A stretch of 64,000 nucleotides of DNA from Candidatus Dormiibacterota bacterium (GCA_963791435.1 CAWBSL010000001.1:1553817-1617816), one strand, 5' to 3'; shown: positions 9,736 through 61,009, counted from the stretch's first letter. Notes: generated from the letters alone by a model not told the origin. Translations and numbers: made by a program.

Positions 9736-11168
9736 TGGGGGCGCGGACCGGCTTCCTCGAGCACACCCGCCACACCGCCCACAAACGACCGGTGTCGGAA
9801 CGGGTCGCCGACTACCGTGAGGTGTACCTCCCGCTTCCGGTGCAGGTGCTGCGCGAGCAGGGGTCACGGTGCATGGACTGCGGCGTCGCGTTCTGTCACA
9901 GCGGCTGCCCGCTCGGCAACCTCATCCCGGAGTGGAACGATCTCGTGTATCGCGACGACTGGAAGGCAGCCGTCGAACGCCTCCACGCCACCAACAACTT
10001 CCCGGAGTTCACCGGGCGTCTCTGTCCGGCGCCATGCGAGCCCGCCTGCGTGCTCGCCATCAACGATGACCCGGTCGCGATCAAGCAGATCGAGCAGTCG
10101 ATCATCGACCGCGCGTTCGATGAAGGATGGATCCGTGCCGAGCCGCCGTCGCATCGGACCGGACGTCGTGTTGCGGTCGTTGGTTCCGGGCCTGCCGGAC
10201 TCGCGGCCGCGCAGCAGCTCAATCGCGCCGGACACCGAGTCACCGTGTTTGAGCGCTCGGACCGGATCGGTGGGCTCCTTCGCTACGGCATCCCCGATTT
10301 CAAGATGGAGAAGTGGGTGCTCGACCGCCGCGTCGACCTGCTCGAGGCAGAGGGGATCACGTTCGAGACCGGCTACGACATCGGTGTCGACGTCACCGCG
10401 GCGCAATTGCGGGAGCGTTTCGATGCAGTCGTGCTCGCCGTCGGCGCCGATCGGCCTCGCGATGTCGCGGTGCCGGGTCGTGGACTGACGGGCGTGCACT
10501 TCGCGATGGACTACCTGGTGCAGCAGAACCGCAGGGTTGCGGGCGATCGCGTCCATGCGGTTCCCGAGATCAGCGCGCGCGGTCGTAACGTCGTGATCAT
10601 CGGCGGCGGCGATACGGGCGCCGACTGTCTCGGCAACGTCATCCGTGAGCAGTGCACTGACGTGCAGCAGCTGTACATCTACGCGCAACCGCCGGACACA
10701 CGGCCCGGGGACAACCCGTGGCCGCAGTGGCCGTTGATCCTCAGGACCTATCCCGCCCACGACGAGGGCGGCTCGCGCGAGTTCGGTCTGATGGTCACGA
10801 GCTTCGATGGCGAGAACGGCGCCGTGCAACGGGTTCGCGCTGCTCGTGTTGAGGCGCGGCGGGAGGACGGGCGGCGCAGCTTCGTCGCGCTTCCCGGTGA
10901 AGACGTGGCCCTGGAAGCCGACCTCGTGCTCATCGCGATCGGCTACGACGGCGCCACCCGCTCCGGCCTGCTCGACGACCTGTCGGTGACGTTTGACAAC
11001 GCGGGCAACCTCGCCGTCGACGATGCCTTTGCGTGCACGCAGTCCGGTGTGTTCGCAGCCGGCGACGCGGTGCGCGGCGCGTCACTGATCGTGTGGGCAA
11101 TCGCCGACGGACGCGCGGCGGCCCGCAGCTGCGACACGTACCTCACCGGCAGCGTGCGACTGCATTAG
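9735..11168 (+). CDS. gltD: glutamate synthase small subunit (NADPH-dependent)
   Basis: ATG overlaps the gltB TGA (TGATG). CxxxCxxxC Fe-S cluster, VAVVGSGPAGLAAA and IIGGGDTGADC FAD/NAD Rossmann motifs. Confidence 0.93.
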
Positions 11169-11175
11169 GCGATCG

Positions 11176-13362
11176 TCAGCCCGCAGTTGGCGCCGGTGTG
11201 GGAGTGGGCGCCGGGCTCGGGCTGCTGGGTGCCGTTGGCGGTGCGGTGGGGGATGGAGTCGGTGAAGGCTGCGTCGAGGGGCTCGGCGACGCCGACGGGC
11301 TCGGCTGCGCACTGGGGGTTGCGCTCGGCGACGCCGATGGCGACGGGGTCACATCGGGCAGCGGCCCGAGCTTGAGGTCCGGGACGATCTTGCCAATGCT
11401 GGGCAGGTCGGTCTGCGGCCCGCCAAACGGTGCATTGGTGCTCGGTGCGGCGATCACGAGCGCCCCTACGACTGCAGCAGCAGCGAGTCCGGTGAGCGCG
11501 AGCGGTAGGGCGACGGGCCGGCTGCGTTCCGGCCTGTCGCCGGTGTTCTGCGGCGACCGGGCATACGCACGGCGCTCCGGCGTGAGGATGATGCCCTCGG
11601 CGGCGAGACTCGCCCATGGCGCGTTGGAATACACGAACGCCTCGAAGACGAGCAGCAGCGCGAGCACGATCGTCGCTGCGCTCGGCGAGCGTACCAACAT
11701 CGCGGCTGCGCCCGCGACGCCCGCGATGGTGAGCAGCGTCTCCGCGCGCGACGAGCGCATCGCGCTCAGCAGCGAGCGTCCGTCCTTGCTCTTCGCGGTG
11801 CGAAGGAATTCCGCGTGCTTCTGCAGAAGACCACGGACGCACGCGAGCGTGACCACCCAGGACAGGGCGAACCAGACTCGCAATGCGTTGATCGCATCCC
11901 GCGTGCTTGCATGGCAGGCGCGGCGGAGCGCCCAGATCGCCCGCAGCATCCCCGTTGCTGCGAATGCCAGCGGCACCACGAGCACCGCTCCCGTGAGCTG
12001 ACGCACCGGGAGCCGCTCGTGGAGGGACGCCGCGAGTGCCGTCGCGAGCAGCAACACGGTGAATGTGGCGGTGAGCACTTCAGCGAACCACTGCACGCTG
12101 CCCAGGAGGTAGTGGATGCGCTGCGCGAGGGTGAGTCGCATCCGGTGCCGAGCGAAAGGAAGCATATCGCGCCAGTGGAACTTGAGGATCTGAATACCGC
12201 CGAGGGCCCAACGGAACCGCTGCTTCTTGAGGCCGTCGAAGTCAAGCGGCATCAACCCCTGCCCATACGCGGCCGGGTCATACACGCCGCGATACCCGGC
12301 GCCGAGCATGCGCAACGACGCCTCGGCATCCTCGGTGATGCACTCCTGGTTCCAACCGCCGATCTCGCTGAATGCCGAGCGGCGGATGAGCCCCATGGTG
12401 CCGCAGAAGATGATCGCGTTGCGATGGCTGCGCGCGATCATTGTGATGTCGAAGAAGTATCTGAAGCTGTAGAAGAGGCCGCGCAGATACGTGTTGTCGC
12501 GCCAGTCGCGATAGTGCTGCGACGTCTGCATGAACGCGACGGTCGGGTCGTCGAAGTACCCGATCGTGTTGCGCAGCCACTGGGGATGCACCTGGTAATC
12601 GGCATCGACGATGCCGAGGATCTCGACTTCGGCAGGGAGCCGCGGCGTCGCTTCGTTGAGCGCACCAGCCTTGTATCCCGGCCAGTTCTCGAGGTGAACG
12701 AACGTGAAGCGTGGCCCGAGTTGCGCGCAGAGTTCCTCGATGGGTTTCCAGAGCGCCGGGTCGGTGGTGTTGTTGTCGACGACCTGGACGATCAGATGGG
12801 GGTAGTCGATCTGCGCGAGTGATTCGAGGGTGGGTCGGACCACCTCGACGGGCTCGTTGTACGTCGGCACCTGCAGGGCGACCCACGGCTCGCGCGTGAG
12901 CGGCGGAGGCACCCGGCGGCGTTCGCGTCGGGAGAGGACGTCGCAGATCTCGAAGGTGAAGGACACCGACAGCGCAAGGGCAAGGATCTCGAAGACGAGC
13001 AGAACGATCGATGCGAGCAGCGCGCCGATCGGGAGTCCGTCGAAGAACGTCTGCACCGCGGCATACGTGAGGTAGCAGGTCGCGGCGGCCGTGACGGCCA
13101 GGAACAGCTGCGCACCGACCCAACTCCACCGCGGTTGGATGACGCGCATGACGACGATCAGGAGGATCGCCGCGATCCCAAGCGAGGTCATCCCCGGCTC
13201 GTCGTGCTCGATCTCGAGGAACGCGGCGCCCGCCCCGGCCAGGGCGATCGCGCAGAACGGAAGACCGAGCCACGCCCGCGCGGTCATGGCCGCCGGCAGC
13301 ATCGCGACGATCAGCGTTGCGGCGAGGAGGAGGGCGAAAAAGATGACGCTCTCGAGGATCAT
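11176..13362 (-). CDS. membrane-embedded family-2 glycosyltransferase of the processive beta-glycan synthase type (cellulose/chitin/NodC-like), with C-terminal Pro/Ser/Thr-rich tail
   Basis: 728 aa. N-terminal TM helices, GT2 core with VVDNNT, DAD(Y) and QRFRWALGG (Q-x-x-R-W), then more TM helices and a ~70-aa SPSASPSAT... low-complexity tail. No PilZ domain. Confidence 0.8.
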   Translation of the reverse strand: MILESVIFFALLLAATLIVAMLPAAMTARAWLGLPFCAIALAGAGAAFLEIEHDEPGMTSLGIAAILLIVVMRVIQPRWSWVGAQLFLAVTAAATCYLTYAAVQTFFDGLPIGALLASIVLLVFEILALALSVSFTFEICDVLSRRERRRVPPPLTREPWVALQVPTYNEPVEVVRPTLESLAQIDYPHLIVQVVDNNTTDPALWKPIEELCAQLGPRFTFVHLENWPGYKAGALNEATPRLPAEVEILGIVDADYQVHPQWLRNTIGYFDDPTVAFMQTSQHYRDWRDNTYLRGLFYSFRYFFDITMIARSHRNAIIFCGTMGLIRRSAFSEIGGWNQECITEDAEASLRMLGAGYRGVYDPAAYGQGLMPLDFDGLKKQRFRWALGGIQILKFHWRDMLPFARHRMRLTLAQRIHYLLGSVQWFAEVLTATFTVLLLATALAASLHERLPVRQLTGAVLVVPLAFAATGMLRAIWALRRACHASTRDAINALRVWFALSWVVTLACVRGLLQKHAEFLRTAKSKDGRSLLSAMRSSRAETLLTIAGVAGAAAMLVRSPSAATIVLALLLVFEAFVYSNAPWASLAAEGIILTPERRAYARSPQNTGDRPERSRPVALPLALTGLAAAAVVGALVIAAPSTNAPFGGPQTDLPSIGKIVPDLKLGPLPDVTPSPSASPSATPSAQPSPSASPSPSTQPSPTPSPTAPPTAPSSPSPAPTPTPAPTAG
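11187..11400. repeat. degenerate short tandem repeats (gctcggcgacgccgayggc-like) encoding the Pro/Ser/Thr-rich tail of the GT2 protein
   Basis: Repetitive GC-rich DNA visible in the sequence. It encodes SPSASPSATPSAQPSPS... Confidence 0.5.
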
Positions 13363-13651
13363 GCGTCCTTGTTCCCGTGGGCTCGCGCGGGAAGGGCACG
13401 AGCATCTAATCTACTAGTAGAACTAGCAGGTTTTATCCGCGTTACGGTATCAGACGTGTGCTCCTGCAGAAGAAGCCAGGGCCTCGGACGCAGTTCAGCG
13501 TGAGTTCACGGCCCTCGCCCGCGTCGCCGAACCGGCCGAGGATCGACCTTCCCTTTCTGGTACCTATATGATAGTCTCGCTGTAAGATTCAGATACAGCC
13601 TCTATGGCAAGCTATCTGACGCAAGCCAGCGAGAAACAAGGAGGTAGATCA
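13363..13651. promoter_or_regulatory. AT-rich divergent intergenic/promoter island with perfect 10-bp palindrome ctactagtag (13411-13420)
   Basis: Local GC drops well below the ~70% window average. A TATATGATAGT-like stretch and the palindrome lie between the divergent GT2 gene and the small membrane protein gene. Confidence 0.4.
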
Positions 13652-13894
13652 ATGGGCATCGGAGTAGGCATCTTCCTGATCGCCATCGGAGCCGTGCTGA
13701 CCTTTGCGGTCCACGTCGCCACGACCGGGATCGATCTGCATACGGTCGGGATCATCCTGATGGCCGCCGGTGGATTCGGCGTGGTGCTGTCGCTCATCTT
13801 CTGGTCGTCCTGGGGAGGCCCGAACGCCTGGAGGCGCGACGGGACACCTGTGGTCAACTCCCGCGGGACGCCAATCGACAACCGACCGATCTGA
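13652..13894 (+). CDS. small membrane protein (DUF6458-like, 2 TM)
   Basis: AGGAGG RBS 7 nt upstream of the ATG. MGIGVGIFLIAIGAVLTFAV... with two hydrophobic helices. Confidence 0.55.
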   Translation: MGIGVGIFLIAIGAVLTFAVHVATTGIDLHTVGIILMAAGGFGVVLSLIFWSSWGGPNAWRRDGTPVVNSRGTPIDNRPI

Positions 13895-13955
13895 CGGTGG
13901 CCGTCGCCACCACCACTGAAAGCACTGTCAAATTCGCAACACAAGGAGTCGAGGC

Positions 13956-14111
13956 GTGATCATTCTGGGCATCATCCTGCTGATCATCGGATTGGTGGCA
14001 GCGCTACCGATCCTGGTCACCATCGGCGTCGTGCTGATCGTCATCGGGCTCGTCCTCGAGCTCATGGGAAGTGCTGGGCACGCACTGGGTGGCCGGCGCC
14101 ACTACTACTGA
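13956..14111 (+). CDS. very small hydrophobic protein (51 aa, 2 predicted TM)
   Basis: AAGGAG RBS, GTG start. VIILGIILLIIGLVAALPILVTIGVVLIVIGLVLELMGSAG.... Not in the ORF track because it is shorter than 60 aa. Confidence 0.4.
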   Translation: MIILGIILLIIGLVAALPILVTIGVVLIVIGLVLELMGSAGHALGGRRHYY

Positions 14112-14112
14112 C

Positions 14113-14127
14113 GGGGAGGTCCTCCCC
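14113..14127 (+). terminator. GC hairpin ggggaggtcctcccc immediately after the small ORF stop
   Basis: Perfect inverted repeat seen in the sequence. No clear U-tract. Confidence 0.3.
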
Positions 14128-14143
14128 GAACCAAGGCTTGTTC

Positions 14144-14173
14144 AGAGACACGTCCCGCGCGGGGCGTGTCTCT
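14144..14173 (+). terminator. second hairpin agagacacg-N12-cgtgtctct
   Basis: 9-bp perfect stem. Could be a terminator or attenuator upstream of the PsiE-like gene. Confidence 0.25.
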
Positions 14174-14236
14174 TGCCGTTAATCGACGACGACGGTCCCT
14201 CGAAGACCGACACGGCCTTACACTGCAACGCACTTC

Positions 14237-14773
14237 ATGTCTGACACGCCGGAGCCGGTCCGCGGGACGCAACCACCCGAGGCGAGAACATCGGGCGGAG
14301 GCGGCATGCTGTCCTGGCCGGAAATACGCCGTGGAACGCCGCTGCGGGCGTTGATCGATCTCGTTCAGTACGGCGTCGCCATCGTGTTGCTCGTGCTTGC
14401 GGCGATCGTGCTGGTCAAGAGCTTTATCGATTTCGTGACGTCTCTCAACAACTACCCGACCCCATTGATCAGCGCCGTGGACGGCGTGCTCGTGGTGATC
14501 ATCCTCATCGACATCATGCGGACTGTCCTGACACATCTCGAAGGGTGGGGGTTTCCGTTTCGACCCTTCCTCGTGATCGGCATCATCGCAGCGGTTCGAG
14601 ACATTCTGGCCGTCTCGACGCGGCTGACTCTCTCCGCAAGCCCGAGCGGTGGATCGATCACGCAGTCGTTGTTCGAACTTGGGACCAACGCCGGCGTCAT
14701 CCTCGTGTTAGCGCTCGCGCTCTTCCTCACTCGTGGCCAGAACGTCGACGCCGAGACGGACCCCCGGCAATAG
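14237..14773 (+). CDS. PsiE-family (phosphate-starvation-inducible E-like) membrane protein
   Basis: 178 aa with four hydrophobic helices (VAIVLLVLAAIVLV, VLVVIILIDIMRTVL, LVIGIIAAVRDIL, GVILVLALALFL) in the PsiE arrangement. Confidence 0.6.
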   Translation: MSDTPEPVRGTQPPEARTSGGGGMLSWPEIRRGTPLRALIDLVQYGVAIVLLVLAAIVLVKSFIDFVTSLNNYPTPLISAVDGVLVVIILIDIMRTVLTHLEGWGFPFRPFLVIGIIAAVRDILAVSTRLTLSASPSGGSITQSLFELGTNAGVILVLALALFLTRGQNVDAETDPRQ

Positions 14774-40731: not shown

Positions 40732-41826
40732 TTGATCACACGTGAGATCCAGGTGACCCCGGACCAGCGAGCGGCGCTCGATGCCGCGCGCCGAGAGTTC
40801 TCCGCCGACGTCATCTTTCTCAACTCAGCAACGATGGGACTGCCGCCGCGGCGCACCATCAAAGCGCTGCAGGACTCGATGACCGAGTGGGCCTCCGGAA
40901 GAGGGGACGGCCCCGCATACGACATCCCGGTCGCGACAGCGCGGGAGCTGTACGCCGGCCTCGTCGGCTGCGACCCTGGAATGGTCTCGGTCGGCAGCCA
41001 GGTGTCGGTCTTCGCGGGCCTCATTGCCGCATCGCTGCCGCCAGGGAGTGAGGTCCTCACTGCCACGGGGGATTTCACGAGCATCCTGTTTCCGTTCCAT
41101 GCCCAGGCGGCTCGTGGGATCACGGTGCGCGAGGCGCCGCTCGAGCACATCGCCGATGCCGTCACGTCGCAGACGACGCTTGTCTCGGTGTCCGCGGTGC
41201 AGTCCGCCGACGGACGCATCGCGGATCTCGATGCGTTGACGGCTGCGTGTGCGGCAAAGGGGACTCGGATCCTGCTCGATACCACGCAGGCGGTCGGCTG
41301 GCTCCCAATTGATGCACGCCGGTTCGCGTACACCGTGAGCGGCGGATACAAATGGCAGCTTTCACCCCGCGGCACCGCGTTTCTCACCATCCAGCGTGAG
41401 CTGCTCGACGAGCTGACGCCGAACAACGCGGGCTGGTATGCCGGTGCCGAACGCTGGAGCAGCATCTACGGCGCGCCGCTGCGCCTCGCTGCTGATGCGC
41501 GCCGCTTCGACGTCTCGCCCGCGTGGCTTCCCTGGGTTGGTGCGGTGCCGTCGCTCGAGCTTCTCACCGACGTCGGCCGCGACGCATTGCACGCGCACGC
41601 CGTCGGCCTCGCACACCGATTCTGTGCCGGCGTCGATCTGCCGTACCACGGTTCCGCGATCGTCTCGGCCGTTGCAGACGCCGAGGTCCCCGCGCTGATG
41701 CGATCGGCCGGCATCGTCGGGGTCACCAGAGCCGGGAGGCTCCGTCTGTCATTTCATGTCTCAACGAGCCAGGAGGACGTCGACCGCACGGTCGAGGTGC
41801 TCTCCGGTCACCTGCGCTCGTCGTAG
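40732..41826 (+). CDS. class V (PLP fold type I) aminotransferase
   Basis: ...VIFLNSATMG..., SGGYKWQLSPRGTAFL (PLP-lysine region). 364 aa. Alternative GTG start at 40753. Confidence 0.8.
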   Translation: MITREIQVTPDQRAALDAARREFSADVIFLNSATMGLPPRRTIKALQDSMTEWASGRGDGPAYDIPVATARELYAGLVGCDPGMVSVGSQVSVFAGLIAASLPPGSEVLTATGDFTSILFPFHAQAARGITVREAPLEHIADAVTSQTTLVSVSAVQSADGRIADLDALTAACAAKGTRILLDTTQAVGWLPIDARRFAYTVSGGYKWQLSPRGTAFLTIQRELLDELTPNNAGWYAGAERWSSIYGAPLRLAADARRFDVSPAWLPWVGAVPSLELLTDVGRDALHAHAVGLAHRFCAGVDLPYHGSAIVSAVADAEVPALMRSAGIVGVTRAGRLRLSFHVSTSQEDVDRTVEVLSGHLRSS

Positions 41827-41870
41827 CGACGCGCGGTGCCCAACTCGCATCCATCAGAGGAGAGGACGCC

Positions 41871-43209
41871 ATGACCGTTCAGGTCACACAGAGCCGCATG
41901 ACCAGCGAAGAGATCGCGCGGTTGTCGAAGGAGCACACGTTCTTCTCGTGGTCGGTGCAGGGTGCAGTCGATCCCATCGCCATCGATCACGCGGAAGGAG
42001 TCTGGCTGTACACGCCTGAAGGCAGGCGCATCCTCGACTTCAACAGCCAGCTCATGTCGGTGAACATCGGACACGGCGACCAGCGGGTCGTGCAGGCGAT
42101 CACCGAGCAGGCCACCAAGCTGCAGTTCGTGCAACCGGCATTCGTCACCGAGATTCGCGCGCGCCTCGGTGAGAAGTTGACGTCGCTCCTGCCCGGAGAC
42201 CTCGACAAGGTCTTCTTCACACTCGGCGGGGCGGAGGCCATCGAGAACGCGATCAAGATCGCGCGTCAGTACACCGGCCGATACAAGATCCTCGCCCGGT
42301 ACCGCGCCTATCACGGGGCCACGATGGGCGCAATGACGCTGACCGGCGATCCACGCCGCTGGGCGACGGAACCCGGACTCGTCGGCGTTGTCCGGTATCC
42401 CGATACGCATCGCTGGGGTGAGCACGAACCGAGACCCGTGGCAGAAAGCCTTCAGGGTCTCGAGGACGTGATCCGTTACGAGGGACCGCACACCATCGCG
42501 GCCATCTTCCTCGAGACCATCGTCGGCACCAACGGCATCCTGATTCCACCGGACGGCTACATCCAGGGCGTCCGCGAGCTCTGCGATCGGCACGGCATTC
42601 TGATGGTCGCGGACGAGGTGATGGCGGGTTTCGGGCGTACGGGGAAGTGGTTCGCGGTCGAGCACTGGAATACCGTCCCGGACCTGATGACCATGGCCAA
42701 GGGTCTGACGTCCTCGTACCTGCCACTCGGGGCGGTGGCGATGCGCCGTCACATCGCCGAGAAGTTCGAACTCGATGATGTACTACGGCGGCCTCACGTA
42801 CTCGAGCCATCCCGTGTCACTCGCCGCGTCGCTGGCCACGCTCAACGTCTACGAGGAGGATCACCTCATCGAGCGCTCGGCTGCGCTCGGGCCGGTGATG
42901 CGCGCCCACCACGAGCGCCTGGCTGCGAAGCACCCGAGCGTCGGCACGCATCGCAACCTGGGGTTGTTCGGCATCCTCGATCTCGTGCGTCAGCAGGATC
43001 CGTACACGCCGATGACGGCGTTCAACGCGTCGAGCGGGGAGATGGCCGCCATCGGCAGGTATCTGCGCGAGCACGGCGTGTACACGATGATCTCCAACAA
43101 CTCGATCCATACCAACCCGCCGCTCTGCATCAGCGAGGACGAGCTCGCGCACGGATTCGAGGTCATCGACGGCGCGCTTTCGATTGCCGACAAGGCCGTT
43201 CTGGGCTAG
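41871..43209 (+). pseudogene. class III aminotransferase (omega-aminotransferase family), interrupted by 1-nt insertion-type frameshift near 42771-42785
   Basis: GGAGAGGA RBS then ATG. ...GGAEAIENAIKIAR...DEVMAGFGRTGKWFA...AKGLTSSYLPLGAV...AEKFELD continues in the +1 frame as MYYGGLTYSSHPVSLAASLATLNVYEE.... The extra base lies in the gatgatg repeat. Confidence 0.8.
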
Positions 43210-43238
43210 CGTCTGATCCCCCACGTGGTCGACCAGCC

Positions 43239-45887
43239 GTGAGCGACGACGCCGAGCGCGCGCAACTCCGTGATGATCCGGCCGGCTGGCGGCGCTGGGG
43301 TCCGTACGTCAGCGAGCGTGCCTGGGGGACGGTGCGCGAGGACTACAGCGCCGACGGTGACGCGTGGGCTTATATCCCGCATGACCAGGCGCGGTCGCGC
43401 GCGTTCCGCTGGAGCGAGGAGGGGCTCGGTGCGATCTGTGACGAGCACCAGTTGCTCTGCCTCGCATTCGCGTTCTGGAATGGCGTGGATCCCATCCTCA
43501 AGGAGCGCATCTACGGACTGACCAATCCGCAGGGAAACCACGGCGAGGACGCAAAGGAATACTGGTGGTACGTCGATTCGACACCGACGCACTCGTGGAT
43601 GCGCTGGCGGTATCTGTATCCCCACCTGGCTTTTCCCTACGACGATCTCCTCGCCGAGAACCAGCGCCGCAGCCAGCAGGAGCCCGAGTACGAGCTTGCC
43701 GACACCGGCGTGCTCGACAACGGTTTCTGGGACATCACGGCGGACTACGCAAAGGAGACGCCGGAGGATCTCGTGATCGAGCTCCGAGCCCGAAATACCG
43801 GCAGCACGGGACAGACACTGCACGTGCTGCCGACGGTGTGGTTCCGCAACACCTGGGTGTGGGGCATCACCGACACGGTCCCCTCATTGCATGTTGAGAA
43901 CCAGCGAATCGTCTGCGACCACACGGTTGTCGGCCGCATGTTCCTCACCGGCGACGGCGACTACACGCCGCTGGTCTGCGACAACGAGTCGAACGCGGCG
44001 CGACTCTGGGGGGCGCCTCCCCGAACCGCATTTCCCAAAGATGGCATCAACGACCACGTCGTCAACGGCGCAAGCACCGTCAACCCGGCGCAGGTGGGGA
44101 CGAAAGCCGCGCTCCACTACATACTCGAGGTCGAAGCCGGATCGACCGCGACCATCAGACTCCGCTTCGGTCGCCGCGAGACCGATGCCGTGGACGGTGC
44201 GGCGGCGGCGCTGGCATTGCGCCGGAGCGAGGCGGATGCGTTCTACGCGAGCCTCATGCCGGATCGCCTCACGCCGGACGAGCGTCTGGTGACGCGGCAG
44301 GCGCTGGGCGGCATGCTCTGGGGGAAGCAGTTCTACCACTACAACGTGACCCGCTGGCTCGACGGCGATCCTGCCGAACCTCCGCCGCCCGCCTCGCGAC
44401 TCGCAGGACGGAACGCCGGCTGGCGGCACGTCGACACGGCCGACATCATGTCGATGCCGGACAAGTGGGAGTACCCGTGGTTTGCCGCCTGGGACCTCGG
44501 GTTTCAGTGCGTCGCGCTGGCGCATGTCGATCCCGAGTTCGCCAAGGATCAACTCATCCTGCTGTGCCGCGAGTGGTACATGCACGCCAACGGACAGCTG
44601 CCCGCCTACGAGTGGTCGTTCGACGACGTCAATCCACCCGTGCACGCATGGGCGGCGCTGCGAGTCTTCGAGATTGACGGAGCAAAGGACTACCAGTTCC
44701 TCGCGCGAGTCTTCCACAAGCTGCTCATCAACTTCACGTGGTGGGTCAACCGCGAGGATGCCGAGGGCAACAACATCTTCGAAGGCGGTTTCCTGGGGCT
44801 CGACAACATCGGGCCATTCGACCGCTCGATGCTGCTTCCCGCGGGCGGTCATCTCGAGCAGTCCGACGGCACGGCATGGATGGCCATGTATTCGCTCAAC
44901 CTGCTCGAGATGGCGCTGATCCTCGCCACCTTCGATCGCGCATACGAGGACGTGGCCACGAAGTTCTTCGAGCACTTCGCGGCCATCGCAACGGCGATCA
45001 ACGAGCAGGGACTCTGGGATGAGGACGCGGGTTTCTATTACGACAGCTGGCGATTCGCCGACGGCACGCGAATCCCGATCCAGGCCCGTTCGATCGTGGG
45101 ACTCATCCCGCTCTGCGCCGCAACAACACTCGGCAACGACACGCTGAGTCTGTTGCCCGACTTTGCCGCGCGCCTGCGTCTGTTCATCAAGCTCAAACCA
45201 AGATATGCGGCTGCTGTCTCGCTCGAGCTCGAGGAGCGGGAACGCGAGAGCCGTCTGCTCGCGATCGTCGACCCGGAACGGCTGCGCCGCATCCTCTCGT
45301 ACGCGCTCGACGCGTCGGAGTTCCTCAGTGACCACGGGCTGCGTGCGCTTTCGCGATATCACGCCGACCATCCTCTCGACATCGATCTCGGCGGCATGGT
45401 GGCGCGCCTCGACTACGAGCCGGCGGAGTCGACGTCACGCCTCTACGGCGGCAACTCCAACTGGCGTGGGCCCGTGTGGTTTCCGGGCAATCATCTGATC
45501 GTCGAGGCGCTGCGTGTATACCACCGGTTTCTCGGCGACACCTGGACGGTCGAGTACCCGCGCGGTTCGGGCCGGCAGCACCATCTCGGCGAGGTCGCGG
45601 ACGATATCGCCGCGCGGCTTGCATCGATCTTTCTCCGAGCCGCCGACGGCATTCGCCCGGTGGTCGCGGGCATCGACCTCTACGCACGCCCGGACCTTGC
45701 CGACGCGATCCCGTTCCACGAGTACTTTCACGCGGAGACCGGCAAGGGACTCGGCGCGTCGCATCAGACCGGATGGACCGGGCTCGTCGCCGATCTGCTC
45801 CTGCGCAGGACCGCTTCACGCGACCGATTTGACATCGCCTCGCTCCGCGGCCCCGACGGTGCCGGGCCTCGTGAGGACCTGCACTAG
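43239..45887 (+). CDS. GH63-family (MGH1-like) glycoside hydrolase, putative glucosylglycerate/mannosylglycerate-type glucosidase
   Basis: 882 aa. [30 protein letters not shown] and (alpha/alpha)6 barrel motifs typical of GH63 (processing alpha-glucosidase/YgjK/GgH family). The 1454-aa ORF from 41523 is a read-through artefact. Confidence 0.78.
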
Positions 45888-53731: not shown

Positions 53732-55708
53732 GTGTCATCTCGCCGGCTGTTCATCATCGTGACGGCGTCGATCGCCGTCCTCGTCAGCGTCTTCGTGAGT
53801 GCGTCGCTGCTCGGCTTCGGTGAGAACGTGTTGCTGTGGGTGTCGCTCGCGCTTGTCGGCCTGACGCTCACACCAATGTACCTGGCGCTGTATCTCAACC
53901 TCGGGCTCGGCAGGGCGCTGGCACATCAGGCGTCGCACGATTCGCTGACCGGATTGCCGAACCGAACGCTGCTGCGGCGGCGCCTGGAGCGCGAGCTTGC
54001 AGCATTCGCGACCGCGGAACAGAGCATGACATTGCTGATGCTTGACCTGGATGGTTTCAAGGAGGTCAACGACACCTTCGGTCATAGTGCCGGTGACCAG
54101 GTGCTGGTCCAGGTTGCGCAGCGGATCGTTGCCAGCGTTCGGGATGGCGATGCGGTTGCCCGTCTTGGGGGCGATGAGTTTGCCGTCCTCCTGGCGGACG
54201 GGCCCGGGGAAGACGCCGCCATCCTTGCACGACGTGTGCTCGCCGCACTGGAGCTGCCCCTTGCGTTGCAGACGACCACGGTAAGCGTCGCCGCGAGCGT
54301 CGGCATCGCCTCAGCAGGGCGCGGCGCGACGGCGGATGAGCTGCTGCGCAACGCGGACCTCGCGATGTACGCGGCAAAGTCCACGGGCGGCAACGGTTTC
54401 GCACTCTTCAAACCGTCCATGCACACGGCGGTGGCGGAGCGTGTGCGCGTGGAGACCGGACTGCGCACGGCGTGGCTCACCGGCGATCTGATCGTGCACT
54501 ATCAGCCGATCGTCGACCTCGAGAATGGTCGACTGATGTCGGTCGAGGCGCTCGCACGGTGGAAGCATCCGGACGGCGACATCATCACTCCGGACGTCTT
54601 CATCCCGATCGCGGAGCGCACCGGTCTGATCATCCCGATCGGCGCGCGGATCCTCAATGAAGCGTGCCAGCAGCTCGCGGCCTGGCAGGGTGAGTACGGC
54701 CCCGCCGCCGACATCACGATGAGCGTCAACGTGTCGCCACGACAGCTCTACTCCGGCGACCTCGAGGCAATCGTCGAGGAGGCGATTCGCAGCGCAGCGA
54801 TACAGCCCAGCAGCCTGATCCTCGAGGTGACCGAGACGTCGGTCATGGACGACATGGACAGCGCGATCCGGATTCTCGGCCGCCTCAAGGCGCTCGGCGT
54901 TGCGCTCGCCATCGACGACTTCGGAGTTGGCGCATCGTCGCTGGCCCGGCTGCGCCGTCTTCCGGTTGCGGTGGTGAAGATCGACAAGTCGCTGGTCGAC
55001 CACGTTCCTGATGGGCACGTGGCGAGCGCGCTCCTCGACGCCGTTGTCGGCATCGTCCGTGCACTGCAGCTACGTACGATCATCGAAGGGGTGGAGCGCG
55101 CCGATCAGGCCGAGCACTTGCGCGTCGCGGGCTACGATCTCGCGCAAGGGTTCTACTATGCACGGCCAATGGAGGCCGAGGGCATCGCGCGTGCACTAGC
55201 TGCCGCCCGGGCAGAAGACGCCGGGAGGGCGGTGTTCCCGGTCGATCTCGATCATCAAGCTGCGCCGCCGCACAAGCGGCCCGGACGCGCTGTGGTCGTG
55301 GACGACGACCAGTTCGTGGGGGCGACCGCCTGCCGGATCCTTGAGCGGTACGGCATGCGCACTGTGCTCGTGCCGACCCTCCGCGAAGCGATGGCGGAGC
55401 TGTCCCACGAGACCGATGTGATGGTTGTCGATATCGGCCTTCCCGACGGCGATGGATGGGACCTCATCACCCACGTGCGCAACGGCACCGTGCACGCGCA
55501 CATGCCGATGGTGGTGATGACGGGTTTGCTCGACAGCGCGGACGTCCTCAACCGCGCCTATGAGCTGAAGTGCGAATACCTGGGCAAGCCATTCGCTCCC
55601 GAGGCACTGATCGCGAAGATCGAATCGGCCAGGCGCATGGTCGCGGTCGCCGTGCCACCGGTCATCGACTCCGAGCTCGACACCCCCGTCGCCGCAGCCA
55701 ACGCCTGA
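53732..55708 (+). CDS. membrane-anchored diguanylate cyclase/phosphodiesterase (GGDEF-EAL) with C-terminal response-regulator receiver (REC) domain
   Basis: Two N-terminal TM helices. GGDEF with intact RxxD I-site (RDGDAVARLGGDEF). EAL domain with EAL, DDFGVG, KID and EGVE motifs. C-terminal REC (VVVDDD...VVDIGLPDGDG...VMTG...KPF). Confidence 0.88.
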   Translation: MSSRRLFIIVTASIAVLVSVFVSASLLGFGENVLLWVSLALVGLTLTPMYLALYLNLGLGRALAHQASHDSLTGLPNRTLLRRRLERELAAFATAEQSMTLLMLDLDGFKEVNDTFGHSAGDQVLVQVAQRIVASVRDGDAVARLGGDEFAVLLADGPGEDAAILARRVLAALELPLALQTTTVSVAASVGIASAGRGATADELLRNADLAMYAAKSTGGNGFALFKPSMHTAVAERVRVETGLRTAWLTGDLIVHYQPIVDLENGRLMSVEALARWKHPDGDIITPDVFIPIAERTGLIIPIGARILNEACQQLAAWQGEYGPAADITMSVNVSPRQLYSGDLEAIVEEAIRSAAIQPSSLILEVTETSVMDDMDSAIRILGRLKALGVALAIDDFGVGASSLARLRRLPVAVVKIDKSLVDHVPDGHVASALLDAVVGIVRALQLRTIIEGVERADQAEHLRVAGYDLAQGFYYARPMEAEGIARALAAARAEDAGRAVFPVDLDHQAAPPHKRPGRAVVVDDDQFVGATACRILERYGMRTVLVPTLREAMAELSHETDVMVVDIGLPDGDGWDLITHVRNGTVHAHMPMVVMTGLLDSADVLNRAYELKCEYLGKPFAPEALIAKIESARRMVAVAVPPVIDSELDTPVAAANA

Positions 55709-55748: not shown

Positions 55749-56783
55749 ATGCGCACCGTGTCCCGTCAACTGCGCTTCGGATACAAGGTGTCGGCGGAGC
55801 AGTTCGGCCCCTCCGCACTGCTCGATTTCACCGTGGCGGCAGAGCAATGCGGGTTCGACACCGCGGCCATCAGCGACCACTTTCAGCCCTGGCGGCACAC
55901 CGGCGGTCACGCGCCCTTCTCGCTTGCATGGCTGGGCGCGGCTGCTCAGGCAACCACGCGTATCGCGCTCGGCACAAGCGTGCTCACCCCGACATTCCGC
56001 TATCACCCCGCGGTGGTCGCCCAGGCGATGGGAACGCTCGGGAGCATGTTCCCCGGCCGGTTCTGGCTCGGGGTGGGGACCGGTGAGTCGATGAATGAGG
56101 CGCCGCTCGGCATCGAGTGGCCGGATACCAAGGAGCGGTTCGCTCGCCTCAAGGAGGCGGTCACGCTCATCCAGACGCTCATGACAACCGATCGCGTCAC
56201 CTTCGACGGCACGTATTACCGGACGCGCAACGCCACCATCTACGACCGTCCCGCGCAGCCGATCCCCATCTACATCGCGGCGGCGGGCGCATCAGCTGCG
56301 CGGCTCGCCGGCAGGGTCGCCGACGGGCTGATCTGCACCAGCGGCAAGGGTATGGAGCTCTACGCGGACACGCTTCTCCCGGCGGTCGCGGAGGGCGCTC
56401 GCGCGGCAGGACGCGAACCCGACGCGGTGGAACTGACCATCGAGATGAAGGTGTCCTTCGACAGGGATCTGGACAGGGCTCGAGAGGACACGCGCCACTG
56501 GTCGGCGCTCGCACTGTCGCCCGAGGAGAAGACCGGCGTCGAGGACGCCGTCGAGATGGAACGGCTCGCCGACGCGCTCCCAACAGACCGGGCGGCGAGC
56601 CGCTGGATCGTCTCCTCAGACCCTGACGAGCACGTGGACAGCATCCGCCCGTACCTCGATCTCGGGTTCACCCACCTCATCTTCCACGCGCCCGGCCCCG
56701 ATCAGCGCCGCTTCCTGGACCTGTACTCGCGCGAGGTCCTGCCACGTCTGCGCGCCATCGGCCGACGAGTCAGCGCCGCCTGA
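55749..56783 (+). CDS. fgd: F420-dependent glucose-6-phosphate dehydrogenase (LLM luciferase-like family)
   Basis: Colinear with mycobacterial FGD1 (GYK.SAEQF.P..L....V.AE..G.D.A.ISDHFQPWRH.GGHAPFSL.W...TPTFRYHPAV.AQA...WIVSSDPDE...HLIFHAPG.DQRRFL.L). Confidence 0.85.
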   Translation: MRTVSRQLRFGYKVSAEQFGPSALLDFTVAAEQCGFDTAAISDHFQPWRHTGGHAPFSLAWLGAAAQATTRIALGTSVLTPTFRYHPAVVAQAMGTLGSMFPGRFWLGVGTGESMNEAPLGIEWPDTKERFARLKEAVTLIQTLMTTDRVTFDGTYYRTRNATIYDRPAQPIPIYIAAAGASAARLAGRVADGLICTSGKGMELYADTLLPAVAEGARAAGREPDAVELTIEMKVSFDRDLDRAREDTRHWSALALSPEEKTGVEDAVEMERLADALPTDRAASRWIVSSDPDEHVDSIRPYLDLGFTHLIFHAPGPDQRRFLDLYSREVLPRLRAIGRRVSAA

Positions 56784-56789
56784 CCCGTC

Positions 56790-57200
56790 TTATCCCTGGG
56801 CTGTGGGGCCGCTCCGGTCGACGCTGATGCGCAGCAGAACACGGCGGTCTCGCACCATCGCCGCGCGGTAGTCGTTCCAGTCCGGATGCTCGCCGCTGAC
56901 CCGCCGGTAGTAGTCGACCAGCGGTTCCATCGCCTCGGGGAGGCTCACGATCTCGACGCTGCCCTCCAGGCTGTGCCACTCACCGAAGAACTGCTGGCTG
57001 AAGACGCAGAGCGCCGCGCGCGGCGTGCGCCGGAGATTGAGCGTCTTCATCGCCCCCTCGCGGGTGCTGATCACCACGCGATCTTCCGCATCGACGGTTG
57101 CGCTGACCGGCGAGAGTTGCGCCTGGCCATCGCGTCGATAGGTTGCGAGCACCGCGCGCGGGTTCGCGCGGACGAAGTCGAGCACGAGTTCATGAGCCAT
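56790..57200 (-). CDS. PPOX-class F420-dependent oxidoreductase (pyridoxamine 5'-phosphate oxidase-like split barrel)
   Basis: 136 aa. ...ANPRAVLATYRRDGQAQLSPV....VVIST... pattern. Confidence 0.75.
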   Translation of the reverse strand: MAHELVLDFVRANPRAVLATYRRDGQAQLSPVSATVDAEDRVVISTREGAMKTLNLRRTPRAALCVFSQQFFGEWHSLEGSVEIVSLPEAMEPLVDYYRRVSGEHPDWNDYRAAMVRDRRVLLRISVDRSGPTAQG

Positions 57201-58119
57201 CGAGCGACTCTAGGCTGTGGAGCAGCGAGCGGGCGAAACGCTGCTCTCCACCGGAGCCCTCCATCACCGTGTCGTCGACCAGCGTGTGCATCCCAAGCGA
57301 ACGGATCTGCCCGATCAGCCCGAGGTCCGCGCGGTCGATGACGATGGTTGCCGCGACGCCGGCGTAGTGGCGAGCCACGCCGAGCGCGGTGGCCTCCTCG
57401 CCCATCTGCTGGAGCATCGACACGGTCGGACCTTTCAGGGAGCGCCCGCCCACCACGGGGGATACGACGGTAACCCGTTCGCGATCGAGCTCATCGCCGA
57501 GGACGGCGAGGATCGGGTCGACGCTCAGGAGCGGATTCGACGGCCCGATGACCACGGCGTCCGCGTTTCGCACTGCGGTGACCGCCTCGGGCGAGGGGGC
57601 GGCCGACTCGATGCCGGCAAGGCGGATGCTTCGCACCACCGGCGCGCACCGCTCGCCGACGAACCACTCCTGCATGCTCAATTCCCCGGCATCGGTCCGG
57701 ATGTGGGTGCGGACGGGGTCGTCGCTCATCGGGATCACGCGCGCCTGAATGCCGAAGCTGCGCGCGAGATGCGCCACCGCCTCACTGAGCCGAAGGCCGT
57801 TGCGGAGGAGCATCGCGCGGAGCAGGTGAACGCCGATATCGCGGTCGCCGAGCTGGAACCAGGTCTGCTCACCGAGGCTCCCGAGCATCGCCTGCGCGTG
57901 AAAGGTGTCGTCACGAACGCCGAACCCGGTCAGCTCGTTGAACACACCGGCGAGCCGGTAGAGGATCGCGTCGACGTCCGGGCTCACGAGCAGACCCCAG
58001 AACTCGTCGTCATCGGCGGTGTTGGCGATGATCGCGAGGTCCTCCGGCGGCAGCTCGGCCGCAAGCCCGCTTGCCAGCCTGGCACCCCCGGTCCCTCCCG
58101 ACAGCAACGCGACTTTCAC
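57190..58119 (-). CDS. cofD: 2-phospho-L-lactate transferase (F420 biosynthesis)
   Basis: MKVALLSGGTGGARLASGL N-terminus and CofD/UPF0052 core. 309 aa. Confidence 0.9.
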   Translation of the reverse strand: MKVALLSGGTGGARLASGLAAELPPEDLAIIANTADDDEFWGLLVSPDVDAILYRLAGVFNELTGFGVRDDTFHAQAMLGSLGEQTWFQLGDRDIGVHLLRAMLLRNGLRLSEAVAHLARSFGIQARVIPMSDDPVRTHIRTDAGELSMQEWFVGERCAPVVRSIRLAGIESAAPSPEAVTAVRNADAVVIGPSNPLLSVDPILAVLGDELDRERVTVVSPVVGGRSLKGPTVSMLQQMGEEATALGVARHYAGVAATIVIDRADLGLIGQIRSLGMHTLVDDTVMEGSGGEQRFARSLLHSLESLDGS

Positions 58120-58853
58120 CGGAAGAGATCCAGCTCCGAGGGCCGCACCAGCTCCTGTCCGGATCCGGGCACGCCTTCCAGGTCGCCAAGTCCCTGGACG
58201 ACCACCACCGGGACGCGCCGCGTTTTGCCCATCACCAGCTCCGCGGCCGCCGCGAGCTCGTCCGCGATCGCCACCACCGTTGCCTGCAACGGCATCCCGA
58301 AGTCATCCGGCTGTCCGCGGTAGTCGAGCATCGCGGGAATCCCCGCCACGCCGAGCGCGACATTGACGAGTCCCATCCGCCAGGCGCGGCCGAACGTGTC
58401 GCTGACGATCACACCGACGCGGACCCCGGAGAGCGCCTCGACCCGGTCGCGTAGCACTCGCGCGCTGGCGTCACAGTCCACCGGGAGCAGGCAGACGTCG
58501 TCCGTGCCGTCCATGTTGGACCGATCGACGCCTGCATTCGCGCAGACGAATCCCTGGTGCGTCTCGACGATGAGGACGCGGTCGGCACGGACGATACGGA
58601 CCGTCTCGTCGAGCACCACCTGGACCATTCGTGCGTCGGCATCGAGGCCCACCGCCAGCGTCCGTGCCTGCTCGGACGGCGTCACCTCCGAGAGGCGCCG
58701 AATCCTCCCCTCGGCCTTGGAGACGACCTTCTGGGCGATCACGACGGCGTCGCCGTCGTGCAGCGTTCCGGAGTGCTCGACGATCAGCGCGGCCAGGTCG
58801 TCACCCGGGTGGATCTCCGGCAGACCCTCGACGCCGCGAAGCTCGAGGTTCAC
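58116..58853 (-). CDS. cofE: coenzyme F420-0:L-glutamate ligase, single-domain form
   Basis: ...GDDLAALI...DGDAVVIAQKVVSKAEGR...CANAGVD.SN... 245 aa, so it lacks the C-terminal nitroreductase-like domain of actinobacterial FbiB. ATGA overlap with the cofD start. Confidence 0.88.
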   Translation of the reverse strand: MNLELRGVEGLPEIHPGDDLAALIVEHSGTLHDGDAVVIAQKVVSKAEGRIRRLSEVTPSEQARTLAVGLDADARMVQVVLDETVRIVRADRVLIVETHQGFVCANAGVDRSNMDGTDDVCLLPVDCDASARVLRDRVEALSGVRVGVIVSDTFGRAWRMGLVNVALGVAGIPAMLDYRGQPDDFGMPLQATVVAIADELAAAAELVMGKTRRVPVVVVQGLGDLEGVPGSGQELVRPSELDLFR

Positions 58854-59455
58854 CCGGTCGGCTCGAGCCGGCGCCAGGCGGTGAGGTCGGCCGGCTCGTC
58901 GAGATCGAGAGCGAGACTCGGATCTTCATGGACCACGAACCGCCGGCCGCGGATTCGGGCCTCCTCGGCGAATTTCGGCAGGGATGCCGCTCCGAAGTGG
59001 AGTCCGAAGTGGTCCGGCGGTCGGAGGTACAGCGCGTTGGTGCCCTGGCGGCCGTCTGCGGGTGCAGCGACCACAAGGCTCCCAGGCTCCTCGGCGACGG
59101 CAAGGAGCCGGCGCAACGCTGCCTCGTCCACGAGTGGGAGGTCGGAGCTGAGGAGCAGCACCGCCGATGCGCCGCGCTGCGACGCCTCCTCGAGGCCGCG
59201 CATCGCGGCGGGATTCTGTCCGCTCGGGGAAGCCTCGACGACCAGTGCGGCGCCGCGGGTCCGGGCCAGTTCCGCAGCCTCGATCGATCCGCATACGGCG
59301 AGGGTCGGTGCAAGCCCGAGGGCCGCGTCGAGCGCCCGCGCGGCGGTCATCTCGGCGAGCCTTCGTCGCGCCTGTGGCTCCAGCACCGACGCGAGCCTCG
59401 TTTTCGCGGTGGTGAAGTCCTTGATCAGCACCACGATCCAGAAGGTGGGCGCCAT
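58850..59455 (-). CDS. cofC: 2-phospho-L-lactate (or PEP/3PG) guanylyltransferase
   Basis: WIVVLIKDFTTAKTRL is the hallmark of the CofC/FbiD N-terminus. MobA-like NTP transferase fold. ATGA overlap with cofE. Confidence 0.85.
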   Translation of the reverse strand: MAPTFWIVVLIKDFTTAKTRLASVLEPQARRRLAEMTAARALDAALGLAPTLAVCGSIEAAELARTRGAALVVEASPSGQNPAAMRGLEEASQRGASAVLLLSSDLPLVDEAALRRLLAVAEEPGSLVVAAPADGRQGTNALYLRPPDHFGLHFGAASLPKFAEEARIRGRRFVVHEDPSLALDLDEPADLTAWRRLEPTG

Positions 59456-59462
59456 CGACTGC

Positions 59463-60482
59463 CTAGGATCCGACTTCGGCGGGCACCGGCACATCGGCGG
59501 CCTCGTGCGGCGTCTCGACGACATCGCGCCGCTTCAGCAGGTTCAGCGTCGTGACCACGGCGATCAGGAGCAAGGCACCGACGATCTCGATCCCGTACAG
59601 GGGAAGGCCGAGGCCGACCGGAGCGGGGAGCGAGAACACCAGGAACAGCGTGCACGGGTACCCAAGCTCGGCGATCGATGCGAGCGATGCCGGCGTGCTC
59701 GCCAGCGCTCGGTAGTACAGAAGCATCGCGAGCAGGCCCGGGATGAGCGCGATCCCGATGAAGCTCGGAATCTGGTGCACCGAGAAGGTTCCGAGGTGGC
59801 CGCCTCCGACGTTGGTCAGCATGAGAATGAGCAACACCGGGAGTGCGAGCGTGAAACGCATCGCTGCCGTTGTCACGAACGAGACGTTCGAAAGGCTGTA
59901 GCGGCCGAACACCGTGCCCGACGCCCAGAGAATCACGGCGCCGAGAATCAGGATGGCCGCGAGCAGTTGATCGTGCTCCACCGCGGAGAACGGGGCGAAC
60001 GGGTTCTGCGGAAAGACGATGAGATACACGCCGACGATGGCGACTGCAGCGAGCGGCCAGAAGTACGGCTTGCGGCGCTCCTTCAGGAAGATGCGCGCCA
60101 TTGCGATGCCGAACACCGGCTGCAGCATGTACAGCAGGTACACCTCGTTCTCCACATTGAAGTCGGGGGCCGCATGCGCCGGGAAGGCATAGCTCAGCGC
60201 CTGCGTGAAGAGCACGGTGGCGAACGCCTGCGCGCCCAGCGCGATGATGCCCATGGCGATCCACTGACGGAGCGGCAGGTGATGGAGCTCACGGCGAATG
60301 CGACCCGCCAGTGGCAGAAAGCACAGCGCGATGAGCAGCGACTCGACGAAGACGATCTGGCTCGCAGTGAGCTGCTTGGTCAGCTCGGGTCGGAAATACG
60401 GGTCGGTCGCCCACATCGCGGCGGCGACGGCGACAGCCAGTGGTCCCATGCGGCCGATCAGACCGCCCGCTCTCGATGCCAC
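59463..60482 (-). CDS. DMT-superfamily (EamA-like) transporter, 10 TM
   Basis: Two EamA repeats. Directly upstream of, and co-directional with, cofC. Confidence 0.8.
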   Translation of the reverse strand: MASRAGGLIGRMGPLAVAVAAAMWATDPYFRPELTKQLTASQIVFVESLLIALCFLPLAGRIRRELHHLPLRQWIAMGIIALGAQAFATVLFTQALSYAFPAHAAPDFNVENEVYLLYMLQPVFGIAMARIFLKERRKPYFWPLAAVAIVGVYLIVFPQNPFAPFSAVEHDQLLAAILILGAVILWASGTVFGRYSLSNVSFVTTAAMRFTLALPVLLILMLTNVGGGHLGTFSVHQIPSFIGIALIPGLLAMLLYYRALASTPASLASIAELGYPCTLFLVFSLPAPVGLGLPLYGIEIVGALLLIAVVTTLNLLKRRDVVETPHEAADVPVPAEVGS

Positions 60483-60604
60483 GCTTACGGGACCCTGGCC
60501 TCGCGGGGGCGAGAGGACGGCCGGCCTGGGAAGTGCACCGGTAAATTACACTCGAAAGCACGCCCCCCGGCGTCGGGATACCAGCCACTTGCGGAGATGC
60601 GCTC

Positions 60605-61009
60605 ATGCTGTTCGGTCAAGACCACGTGGATCGATACGTCGCCACCAACGGTGACGAGGGGTATTCGTGGAACAAGGGCACCGAGATTCTGATCCTCACC
60701 ACCACAGGACGGAAGACCGGTCAGGCACGCAGCAATGCGCTCATCTTCGGCCGTCACGGTGACGACCTCCTTGTCGTCGGCTCGAAAGGCGGAGCGCCGA
60801 AACCGCCCGCGTGGTATGTGAATCTCACTGCCAACCCGGAGGTGCAGGTCCAGGTGAAGGGAGACCGCTTCGCGGCTCACGCTCGCACGGCAACTGCGGA
60901 AGAGAAGCCCGAGCTCTGGAAGATCATGACGGCATCGTGGCCGGACTACGACCAGTATCAGCAGCGCACCGAGCGCGAGATCCCCGTGGTCATCCTGACT
61001 CGCGACTGA
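60605..61009 (+). CDS. deazaflavin (F420H2)-dependent nitroreductase family protein (Ddn-like, DUF385)
   Basis: ...ILILTTTGRKTGQARSN.LIF...DDLLVVGSKGGAPKPPAWYVNL.ANPEVQVQV. Confidence 0.8.
   Translation: MLFGQDHVDRYVATNGDEGYSWNKGTEILILTTTGRKTGQARSNALIFGRHGDDLLVVGSKGGAPKPPAWYVNLTANPEVQVQVKGDRFAAHARTATAEEKPELWKIMTASWPDYDQYQQRTEREIPVVILTRD

Follow-up and report, generated by a model that had tools for sequence, protein, structure and literature searches.

A predicted coenzyme F420 tail-assembly operon of a known type in Candidatus Dormibacterota, which includes a conserved transporter and a PPOX-class protein

Genes for the assembly of coenzyme F420 have been described in several arrangements, with which we compare a locus in a 64,000-nt stretch of a Candidatus Dormibacterota genome (GCA_963791435.1, CAWBSL010000001.1:1553817-1617816; this whole stretch is the window hereafter). 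At this locus genes for a transporter, CofC, CofE, CofD and a PPOX-class protein lie between fgd and the gene of a Ddn-like reductase. A review has already drawn cof genes clustered with genes for Fgd, Fno, FDOR and LLHT proteins, and it also covers the stand-alone reductase FbiE of Chloroflexi (PMC8498797, citing Braga 2020 for FbiE). Chloroflexi-type clusters, such as that of Thermomicrobium roseum (cofE-fbiE-cofD-cofC with LLHT and FDOR genes; PMC8498797), share with the window a single-domain CofE, the linkage of cofC, cofD and cofE, and the presence within the cluster of a luciferase-like-family F420-dependent dehydrogenase and a PPOX-class FDOR. The window differs from them in having no FbiE between cofE and cofD, whose overlap leaves no room for one, in its gene order cofC-cofE-cofD, in the EamA transporter heading the operon and in its host phylum. 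The mycobacterial fbiA/fbiB/fbiC/fbiD system is alike in its homologous CofD/FbiA, CofC/FbiD and FbiB ligase domain and in having Fgd and Ddn-type enzymes as the main F420 reducer and consumer, whereas in the window cofC is linked instead of dispersed and the host is not an actinobacterium. Compared with archaeal CofC, CofD and CofE (Methanocaldococcus, Methanosarcina, Archaeoglobus), the window CofE is of equal length and can be aligned over its whole extent with Archaeoglobus fulgidus CofE, and the question of 2-phospholactate (2-PL) versus phosphoenolpyruvate (PEP) is common to both (PMC6450877); the window differs in its bacterial host, its single operon and its Fgd, Ddn-like and PPOX genes typical of aerobic bacteria. 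Finally, Mycetohabitans (Paraburkholderia) rhizoxinica, which makes F420 from 3-phosphoglycerate (3-PG), has an adjacent ABC-type transporter proposed to export the cofactor (PMC8498797); the window also has an adjacent transporter, of a different family.

We found that the locus very probably encodes the tail-assembly part of the coenzyme F420 pathway in Candidatus Dormibacterota, arranged as one transcription unit, transporter-cofC-cofE-cofD-PPOX. Gene models were taken from an open reading frame (ORF) listing and a gene call based on G+C content at third codon positions (GC3), and families were assigned with NCBIfam and Pfam at curated cut-offs, which gave the following features:

55749-56783, plus strand: predicted fgd, 344 amino acids; TIGR03554 equivalog, 467 bits against a cut-off of 420, full length
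56790-57200, minus strand: PPOX-class (FDOR-B, Rv1155-like) split-barrel protein, last gene of the operon, 136 amino acids; TIGR03618, 115.6 against 79
57190-58119, minus strand: cofD/fbiA, joining the activated three-carbon acid to Fo, 309 amino acids; TIGR01819, 265.2 against 257.45, residues 4-297; PF01933
58116-58853, minus strand: cofE, single-domain F420-0:L-glutamate ligase, 245 amino acids; TIGR01916, 281 against 181, residues 4-245; PF01996, 237 bits
58850-59455, minus strand: cofC/fbiD, guanylyltransferase activating the three-carbon acid (2-PL or PEP), 201 amino acids; TIGR03552, 119.5 against 105
59463-60482, minus strand: EamA/DMT transporter, first gene of the operon, 339 amino acids; PF00892 in two stretches, 80 bits
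60538-60562, no strand assigned: AT-rich element of 17 nt, TTCGAGTGTAATTTACC (operon strand), in the 122-bp region between the transporter and Ddn-like genes
60605-61009, plus strand: Ddn-like F420H2-dependent reductase (FDOR-A), divergent from the operon, 134 amino acids; PF04075, 164 bits; TIGR00026, 123 against 46

All seven genes named in the original prediction are in place with scores above the curated cut-offs, and its operon structure and its clustering of three F420-dependent enzymes (Fgd, PPOX-class and Ddn-like) with the biosynthesis genes are likewise confirmed. The convergent fgd is present in the predicted orientation, although it falls just outside the span 56790-61009 in which it had been placed, with 6 nt between its stop and that of the PPOX gene. 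On the minus strand the series runs head to tail, and both the cofC/cofE and the cofE/cofD junctions are 4-nt overlaps; these had been predicted as ATGA, but are GTGA, cofE and cofD both being GTG-initiated. The overlap of cofD with the PPOX gene is 11 nt long (ATGGCTCATGA), and a gap of 7 nt separates the transporter stop from the cofC ATG. Because of these overlaps of 4, 4 and 11 nt and the 7-nt gap, the five genes are likely to be co-transcribed. The ENA gene call for cofC gives 201 amino acids, and the ORF can be extended to 59524, which would give 224.

Relatives of the locus were collected by scanning one genome per GTDB species, which yielded 80 loci, each examined within 10 kb of cofE. 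The nearest genomes are Candidatus Dormibacterota metagenome-assembled genomes (MAGs), the complete chromosome OY970307.1 among them, with CofE identities of 76-90%, and the identical CofE protein is encoded on two ENA metagenome contigs (770 and 787 kb). Gene order and spacing, from the Ddn-like gene through a GGDEF/EAL response regulator beyond fgd, are the same in six other GTDB MAG loci, and since they recur in these six besides the window's own contig the arrangement is not a matter of chance. The six clade loci have tetranucleotide correlations with the window of r ≥ 0.990, against ≤ 0.971 for all other loci of the GTDB scan. Within the clade the transporter is the best-conserved operon protein (82-97% identity in the six other loci), compared with CofC (74-90%), CofE (76-90%) and CofD (71-87%). 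More distant Dormibacterota carry fgd-cofC-cofE(-cofD) without transporter or PPOX gene, and Chloroflexota are among the nearest relatives of the window's F420 genes.

The tail-assembly reading rests on five biosynthesis and redox families that pass their cut-offs, the overlaps, the conserved order, the structural match of CofE and the residues of CofC. CofE matches the archaeal CofE structures 2G9I, 2PHN and 7ULD end to end (E 6e-54, residues 1-245). Upon residue mapping, the Mg- and substrate-binding residues of CofC are all kept, including the catalytic Lys, Asp, Thr and Ser: K12/K18, D105, T139, G155, S158, D184 and D186 align with FbiD K17, D116, T148, G163, S166, D188 and D190. The Ddn-like protein has Mycobacterium tuberculosis Ddn as its closest solved structure (3R5L, E 9e-30). 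Judging by family membership, CofC would activate a three-carbon acid with GTP, CofD would transfer the activated acid onto the deazaflavin Fo and the single-domain CofE would add gamma-glutamates; the adjacent Fgd would recharge F420 with hydride from glucose-6-phosphate, and the PPOX-class and Ddn-like proteins would spend F420H2. Our best guess is that CofC and CofD use PEP or 2-PL, that in the case of PEP the enol intermediate dehydro-F420-0 would be reduced by an enzyme neither fused to CofE nor encoded in the cluster, and that Fo would have to be made with genes lying beyond the window or be supplied to the cell externally.

Several results weigh against the tail-assembly reading. No FbiE-like reductase, cofG/cofH/fbiC or fno was found in the 64-kb window (tblastn), nor were FbiE, cofG/cofH/fbiC or fno found in 13 Dormibacterota loci examined up to 10 kb from cofE (hmmsearch of six-frame ORFs; Fo synthase models TIGR03550 and TIGR03551, radical SAM), so that completeness of the pathway is assumed. 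The window CofC and CofD are equally similar to FbiE-linked and FbiE-less clusters, which gives no separation of PEP from 2-PL. The searched literature reports nothing on F420 in Dormibacterota beyond two incidental mentions. An fbiC gene in the 3-kb cofE-cofD gap of two loci (L011 and L012) was considered and rejected, as unrelated genes occupy the gap.

Upon comparison with the two-domain FbiB model (NF009810), CofE did not classify as such a protein, covering only positions 12-243 of 449 and scoring 247 bits against a cut-off of 304. There is also no room for a nitroreductase domain, because the TGA stop of cofE overlaps the GTG start of cofD. CofE is therefore, as had been predicted, the short single-domain type of 245 amino acids, full length for TIGR01916 and matching FbiB only in its ligase part, and it was legitimate to infer from the missing FbiB C-terminal domain that the reduction step is left open. 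This form is common: the best 120 CofE homologues in a 5.8-billion-protein database are all 243-253 amino acids long, and among the 80 GTDB loci none has a C-terminal nitroreductase domain on CofE, seven have CofE fused to CofC, and cofD and cofC lie within 10 kb of cofE in 63 and 53, respectively. The CofC::CofE fusions are single ORFs with CofC N-terminal (L023, L026, L027, L031, L054, L060 and L084), and belong to Rubrobacteraceae, some Actinomycetota and one Rokubacteria MAG. FbiB itself arose in Actinobacteria through fusion of cofE to the reductase gene fbiE (PMC8498797). A single-domain CofE with linked cofC, cofD and cofE is the normal state outside Actinomycetes (see also PMC8498797), and the window cluster is an instance of this common arrangement. 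An actinobacterial affiliation is ruled out by the best genome matches, which are Dormibacterota MAGs; since the host is Candidatus Dormibacterota and not an actinobacterium, mycobacteria are no fitting reference for calling the cluster unusual, and the surprise that the original prediction attached to the short CofE and the linkage is not supported. Overall, the cluster is real but largely ordinary, an F420 tail-assembly operon of known type with associated F420 enzymes.

We examined the chemistry of the side chain through the specificity residues of CofC, as the original prediction had proposed. The closest solved structure of the window CofC is that of the Mycetohabitans enzyme (7P97, MycB3; E 4e-16), in which use of 3-PG depends on Ser162, aided by His145, Met91 and Cys95, Ser or Thr at position 162 being diagnostic (PMC8764529). 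In an alignment of 56 sequences the equivalent of Ser162 is Gly155 in the window CofC and Gly in all 53 CofC proteins of related loci (53/53), and the window equivalents of His145, Met91 and Cys95 are Gln, Gln and Ala. Glyceryl (3-PG) chemistry, the Paraburkholderia-like option that the original prediction had left standing, is therefore rejected on the Gly at the diagnostic position. Read from these residues, the predicted side chain is shown to be of the classical lactyl type and not glyceryl. Properties of CofC do not discriminate 2-PL from PEP as the substrate in vivo, and CofD co-determines the outcome (PMC8764529). In several loci labelled as Gaiellales, Thermoleophilia or Actinomycetes MAGs (L028, L035, L065, L066, L073, L077, L079 and L083), cofC-cofD-fno-cofE is directly followed by a conserved gene whose product, of 351 amino acids, contains a class II aldolase/adducin domain (PF00596, 61 bits; for example L065:10744-11799). 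In the archaeal route to 2-phospholactate, lactaldehyde is provided by a class II fuculose-phosphate aldolase, so the PF00596 gene beside the cof genes may be relevant to how the lactyl precursor is supplied.

For the origin of the lactyl group, the account that survives best, plausible though tentative, is that the PEP route operates and that an unlinked stand-alone FbiE encoded elsewhere in the genome reduces dehydro-F420-0, as in Thermomicrobium. FbiE-like genes were defined as nitroreductase-fold genes of about 200 amino acids with TIGR03553 as the top nitroreductase family and a W-x-C-A-P-x-F-C signature. Clustering of all ORFs of the 80 loci recovered a nitroreductase family of this length whose best nitroreductase-family model is TIGR03553 (the FbiB C-terminal domain; 151-159 bits in the three stand-alone examples scanned). 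In favour of this account, FbiE-like genes separate cofE from cofD in eight loci of Ktedonobacteria and Chloroflexia, adjoin cofD in two Nitrososphaeria loci and occur in dozens of high-GC metagenome loci; an unlinked FbiE-like gene also exists (L088, with a tetranucleotide correlation to the window of 0.80, so outside the clade), and the Chloroflexota affinity of the window's F420 genes points the same way. Against it, FbiE is usually inside the cluster where present, and none was seen near cofE in the 13 Dormibacterota loci. In the 5.8-billion-protein database, the matches to an FbiE profile were all from Ktedonobacteraceae and other Chloroflexi, with none from Dormibacterota. An FbiE query (P0127) against 50%-identity representatives gave 150 matches, 52 of them with the FbiE signature, and neither the cluster look-ups (20) nor the contig look-ups (three) linked FbiE-signature proteins to Dormibacterota. 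A codon-biased scan of JGI metagenomes for the FbiE motif returned at least 120 loci, and none among those listed had the clade tetranucleotide signature (best r 0.966 versus ≥ 0.990), which is a motif-dependent, weak negative that also counts against an unlinked FbiE.

Possible, but rather less than probable, is the use of 2-PL by CofC and CofD, as proposed for methanogens, for which the reductase would be unneeded. The archaeal single-domain type of CofE and the lack of FbiE in the cluster (window and 13 Dormibacterota loci) are consistent with this route. All bacterial and archaeal CofC proteins tested in PMC8764529, except two Mycetohabitans enzymes, preferred 2-PL in vitro, but so do enzymes whose natural substrate is PEP (PMC8764529). 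No enzyme making 2-PL is known in any organism (PMC6450877, PMC8498797), with nothing newer in the searched literature, and nothing in the window resembles a lactate kinase. The locus extends both the making and the use of F420 (Fgd, Ddn-like, PPOX) to Dormibacterota, which are abundant in soil and uncultured, and adds one more lineage of single-domain-CofE organisms facing the question of where the lactyl group originates, through supply of 2-PL or through reduction of dehydro-F420.

The operon offers two concrete candidates beyond the core genes, the conserved transporter and the small, flavin-type and translationally coupled PPOX protein, and their associations are the only features able to lift the cluster above a routine cof operon. 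The PPOX-class protein has Rv1155 as its closest solved structure (1W9A/4QVB, E 7e-20), and F420 binding is predicted. TIGR03618 PPOX genes adjoin cofE, cofD, fbiE or a luciferase-like (LLM) gene in Chloroflexota, Acidobacteriota and many metagenome loci; the order cofE-PPOX-fbiE-cofD occurs in L175 and L180, and a TIGR03618-type gene lies beside fbiE or an LLM gene in L120, L154, L157 and L184. In one case the domain is fused to CofG, in a protein of 507 amino acids (TIGR03550, 357 bits, with C-terminal TIGR03618, 79.5 bits; L085:7236-8759 and L086:106-1629) that was called in two independent assemblies and whose gene heads a complete cofG::PPOX-cofH-fbiE-cofD-cofC-cofE cluster (L085 is ENA ERZ25074053 ctg471170, 2.13 Mb). 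Fusions of a TIGR03668 (Rv0121-type) PPOX domain to FbiE, with PPOX N-terminal, are present in 14 or more metagenome loci as well as in Rubrobacteraceae (L091, L103, L111, L117, L124, L134, L137, L160, L170, L174, L176, L178, L199, L201, L209-L212; L026:13233-13834), often preceded by an overlapping luciferase-like (TIGR03619-type) gene. The searched literature makes no mention of a PPOX-FbiE fusion architecture.

The transporter had been predicted to import or export a precursor or F420 itself, and this gains some support from its gene neighbourhood elsewhere, though none as to substrate. No solved structural relative was found for it, and its only NCBIfam match is far below cut-off (39 versus 230). 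When its profile was run against about 200 F420-related loci, one other ORF matched, a Rubrobacteraceae EamA protein (37-38% identity, E 3e-43 to 3e-53) encoded immediately downstream of a PPOX(TIGR03668)::FbiE gene. The trio LLM - PPOX::FbiE - EamA is kept in three further Rubrobacteraceae contigs and split by an insertion in a fourth (L201, L209-L212). In the related Rubrobacteraceae MAGs L026 and L031, a distance of about 10 kb separates the PPOX::FbiE gene from cofD and a cofC::cofE fusion. This module resembles the window in placing an EamA protein of the same subfamily beside an F420 biosynthesis gene and PPOX-class and luciferase-like proteins; it differs in that the transporter follows fbiE instead of preceding cofC, and in that its PPOX protein is of another subfamily and fused to FbiE. 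The chance that the adjacency in a second phylum is coincidental can be put roughly at a few per cent.

The repeated linkage and fusion of PPOX-class proteins to F420 biosynthesis genes suggests that they help to make F420 and do not only use it, which may also hold for this transporter subfamily. The stronger claim, that the EamA and PPOX-class proteins are no passengers but belong to bacterial F420 biosynthesis as accessory parts that have gone unrecognised, we regard as unlikely, although it can be argued from the conservation of the transporter and its recurrence beside fbiE in a second phylum, the PPOX::FbiE and CofG::PPOX fusions and the repeated cofE-PPOX-fbiE order. The transporter would then move a deazaflavin species (uptake, re-uptake or export of Fo), and PPOX split-barrel proteins would serve the reduction of dehydro-F420-0 or the steps forming Fo. 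If this were true, the missing-reductase problem of PMC6450877 would be solved differently in single-domain-CofE organisms that lack FbiE. The PPOX::FbiE and CofG::PPOX fusions make a PPOX role in cofactor synthesis directly testable.

Narrower still, and in our judgement improbable, is the proposal that the operonic PPOX protein itself takes part in the reduction step, either reducing dehydro-F420-0 with F420H2 from Fgd or feeding electrons to the reductase. It draws on the 11-nt overlap with cofD, the TIGR03618 genes between cofE and fbiE or beside fbiE and LLM genes, the CofG fusion and the fusion of the related TIGR03668 domain to FbiE, together with the ability of FDOR enzymes to reduce activated C=C bonds (PMC8498797). 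However, PPOX genes co-occur with FbiE (L043, L047 and L053), by which a simple replacement of FbiE is disfavoured, and because identity between the window PPOX and the examples beyond Dormibacterota is just 29-38%, orthology is uncertain. Moreover, Rv1155-like proteins are listed as biliverdin reductases (PMC8498797), and F420-using genomes have many FDOR paralogues. Least likely is Fo salvage, in which a clade without Fo synthase would import, through the co-transcribed transporter, Fo or another deazaflavin released by neighbours: the lack of cofG/cofH/fbiC in the window and near cofE in the 13 loci, the place of the transporter as first and most conserved operon gene and the fbiE linkage of its subfamily in Rubrobacteraceae speak for it, but many F420 producers encode Fo synthase away from cofE, so that absence over 20-64 kb says little, family and structure matches give no hint of the transporter's substrate, no riboswitch was found in the window (Rfam), and Fgd with two FDORs in one locus has the look of a committed F420 user.

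Turning to regulation, the AT-rich element between the divergent transporter and Ddn-like genes is identical in seven of seven clade loci, and the GC-rich flanks around it are variable. Most simply, it is a putative shared -10 element or operator. Rfam gave no match to any RNA regulator in the window, and scans for consensus promoters and terminators were uninformative, the sole terminator-like match overlapping the AT-rich element and being probably spurious.

The gene directly upstream of fgd, on the same strand and 40 nt away (53732-55708), encodes a GGDEF-EAL protein of 658 amino acids with a C-terminal receiver domain, and it occupies the same position in the six other clade loci (73-86% identity). 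In a second ENA assembly of the same organism (L002), cofD is broken into pieces of 209 and 75 amino acids and the GGDEF/EAL gene is truncated (10735-11665, 13147-14706); these breaks show insertion or deletion errors in these long-read assemblies, and the window copy is intact. In the window, a class-III aminotransferase-like frame shifts near 42770 (41523-45887 and 42775-43209), where the long ORF continues into a large protein that, by sequence look and without a family scan, resembles a glycoside hydrolase; the change of frame is probably a frameshift or a long-read indel error. Homology searches returned no further F420 biosynthesis genes in the rest of the 64-kb window, and positions 1-52000 appear by eye to encode ordinary heterotroph metabolism, including glutamate synthase, branched-chain keto-acid dehydrogenase, paa phenylacetate degradation, phosphoketolase with acetate kinase, and glycolate oxidase.

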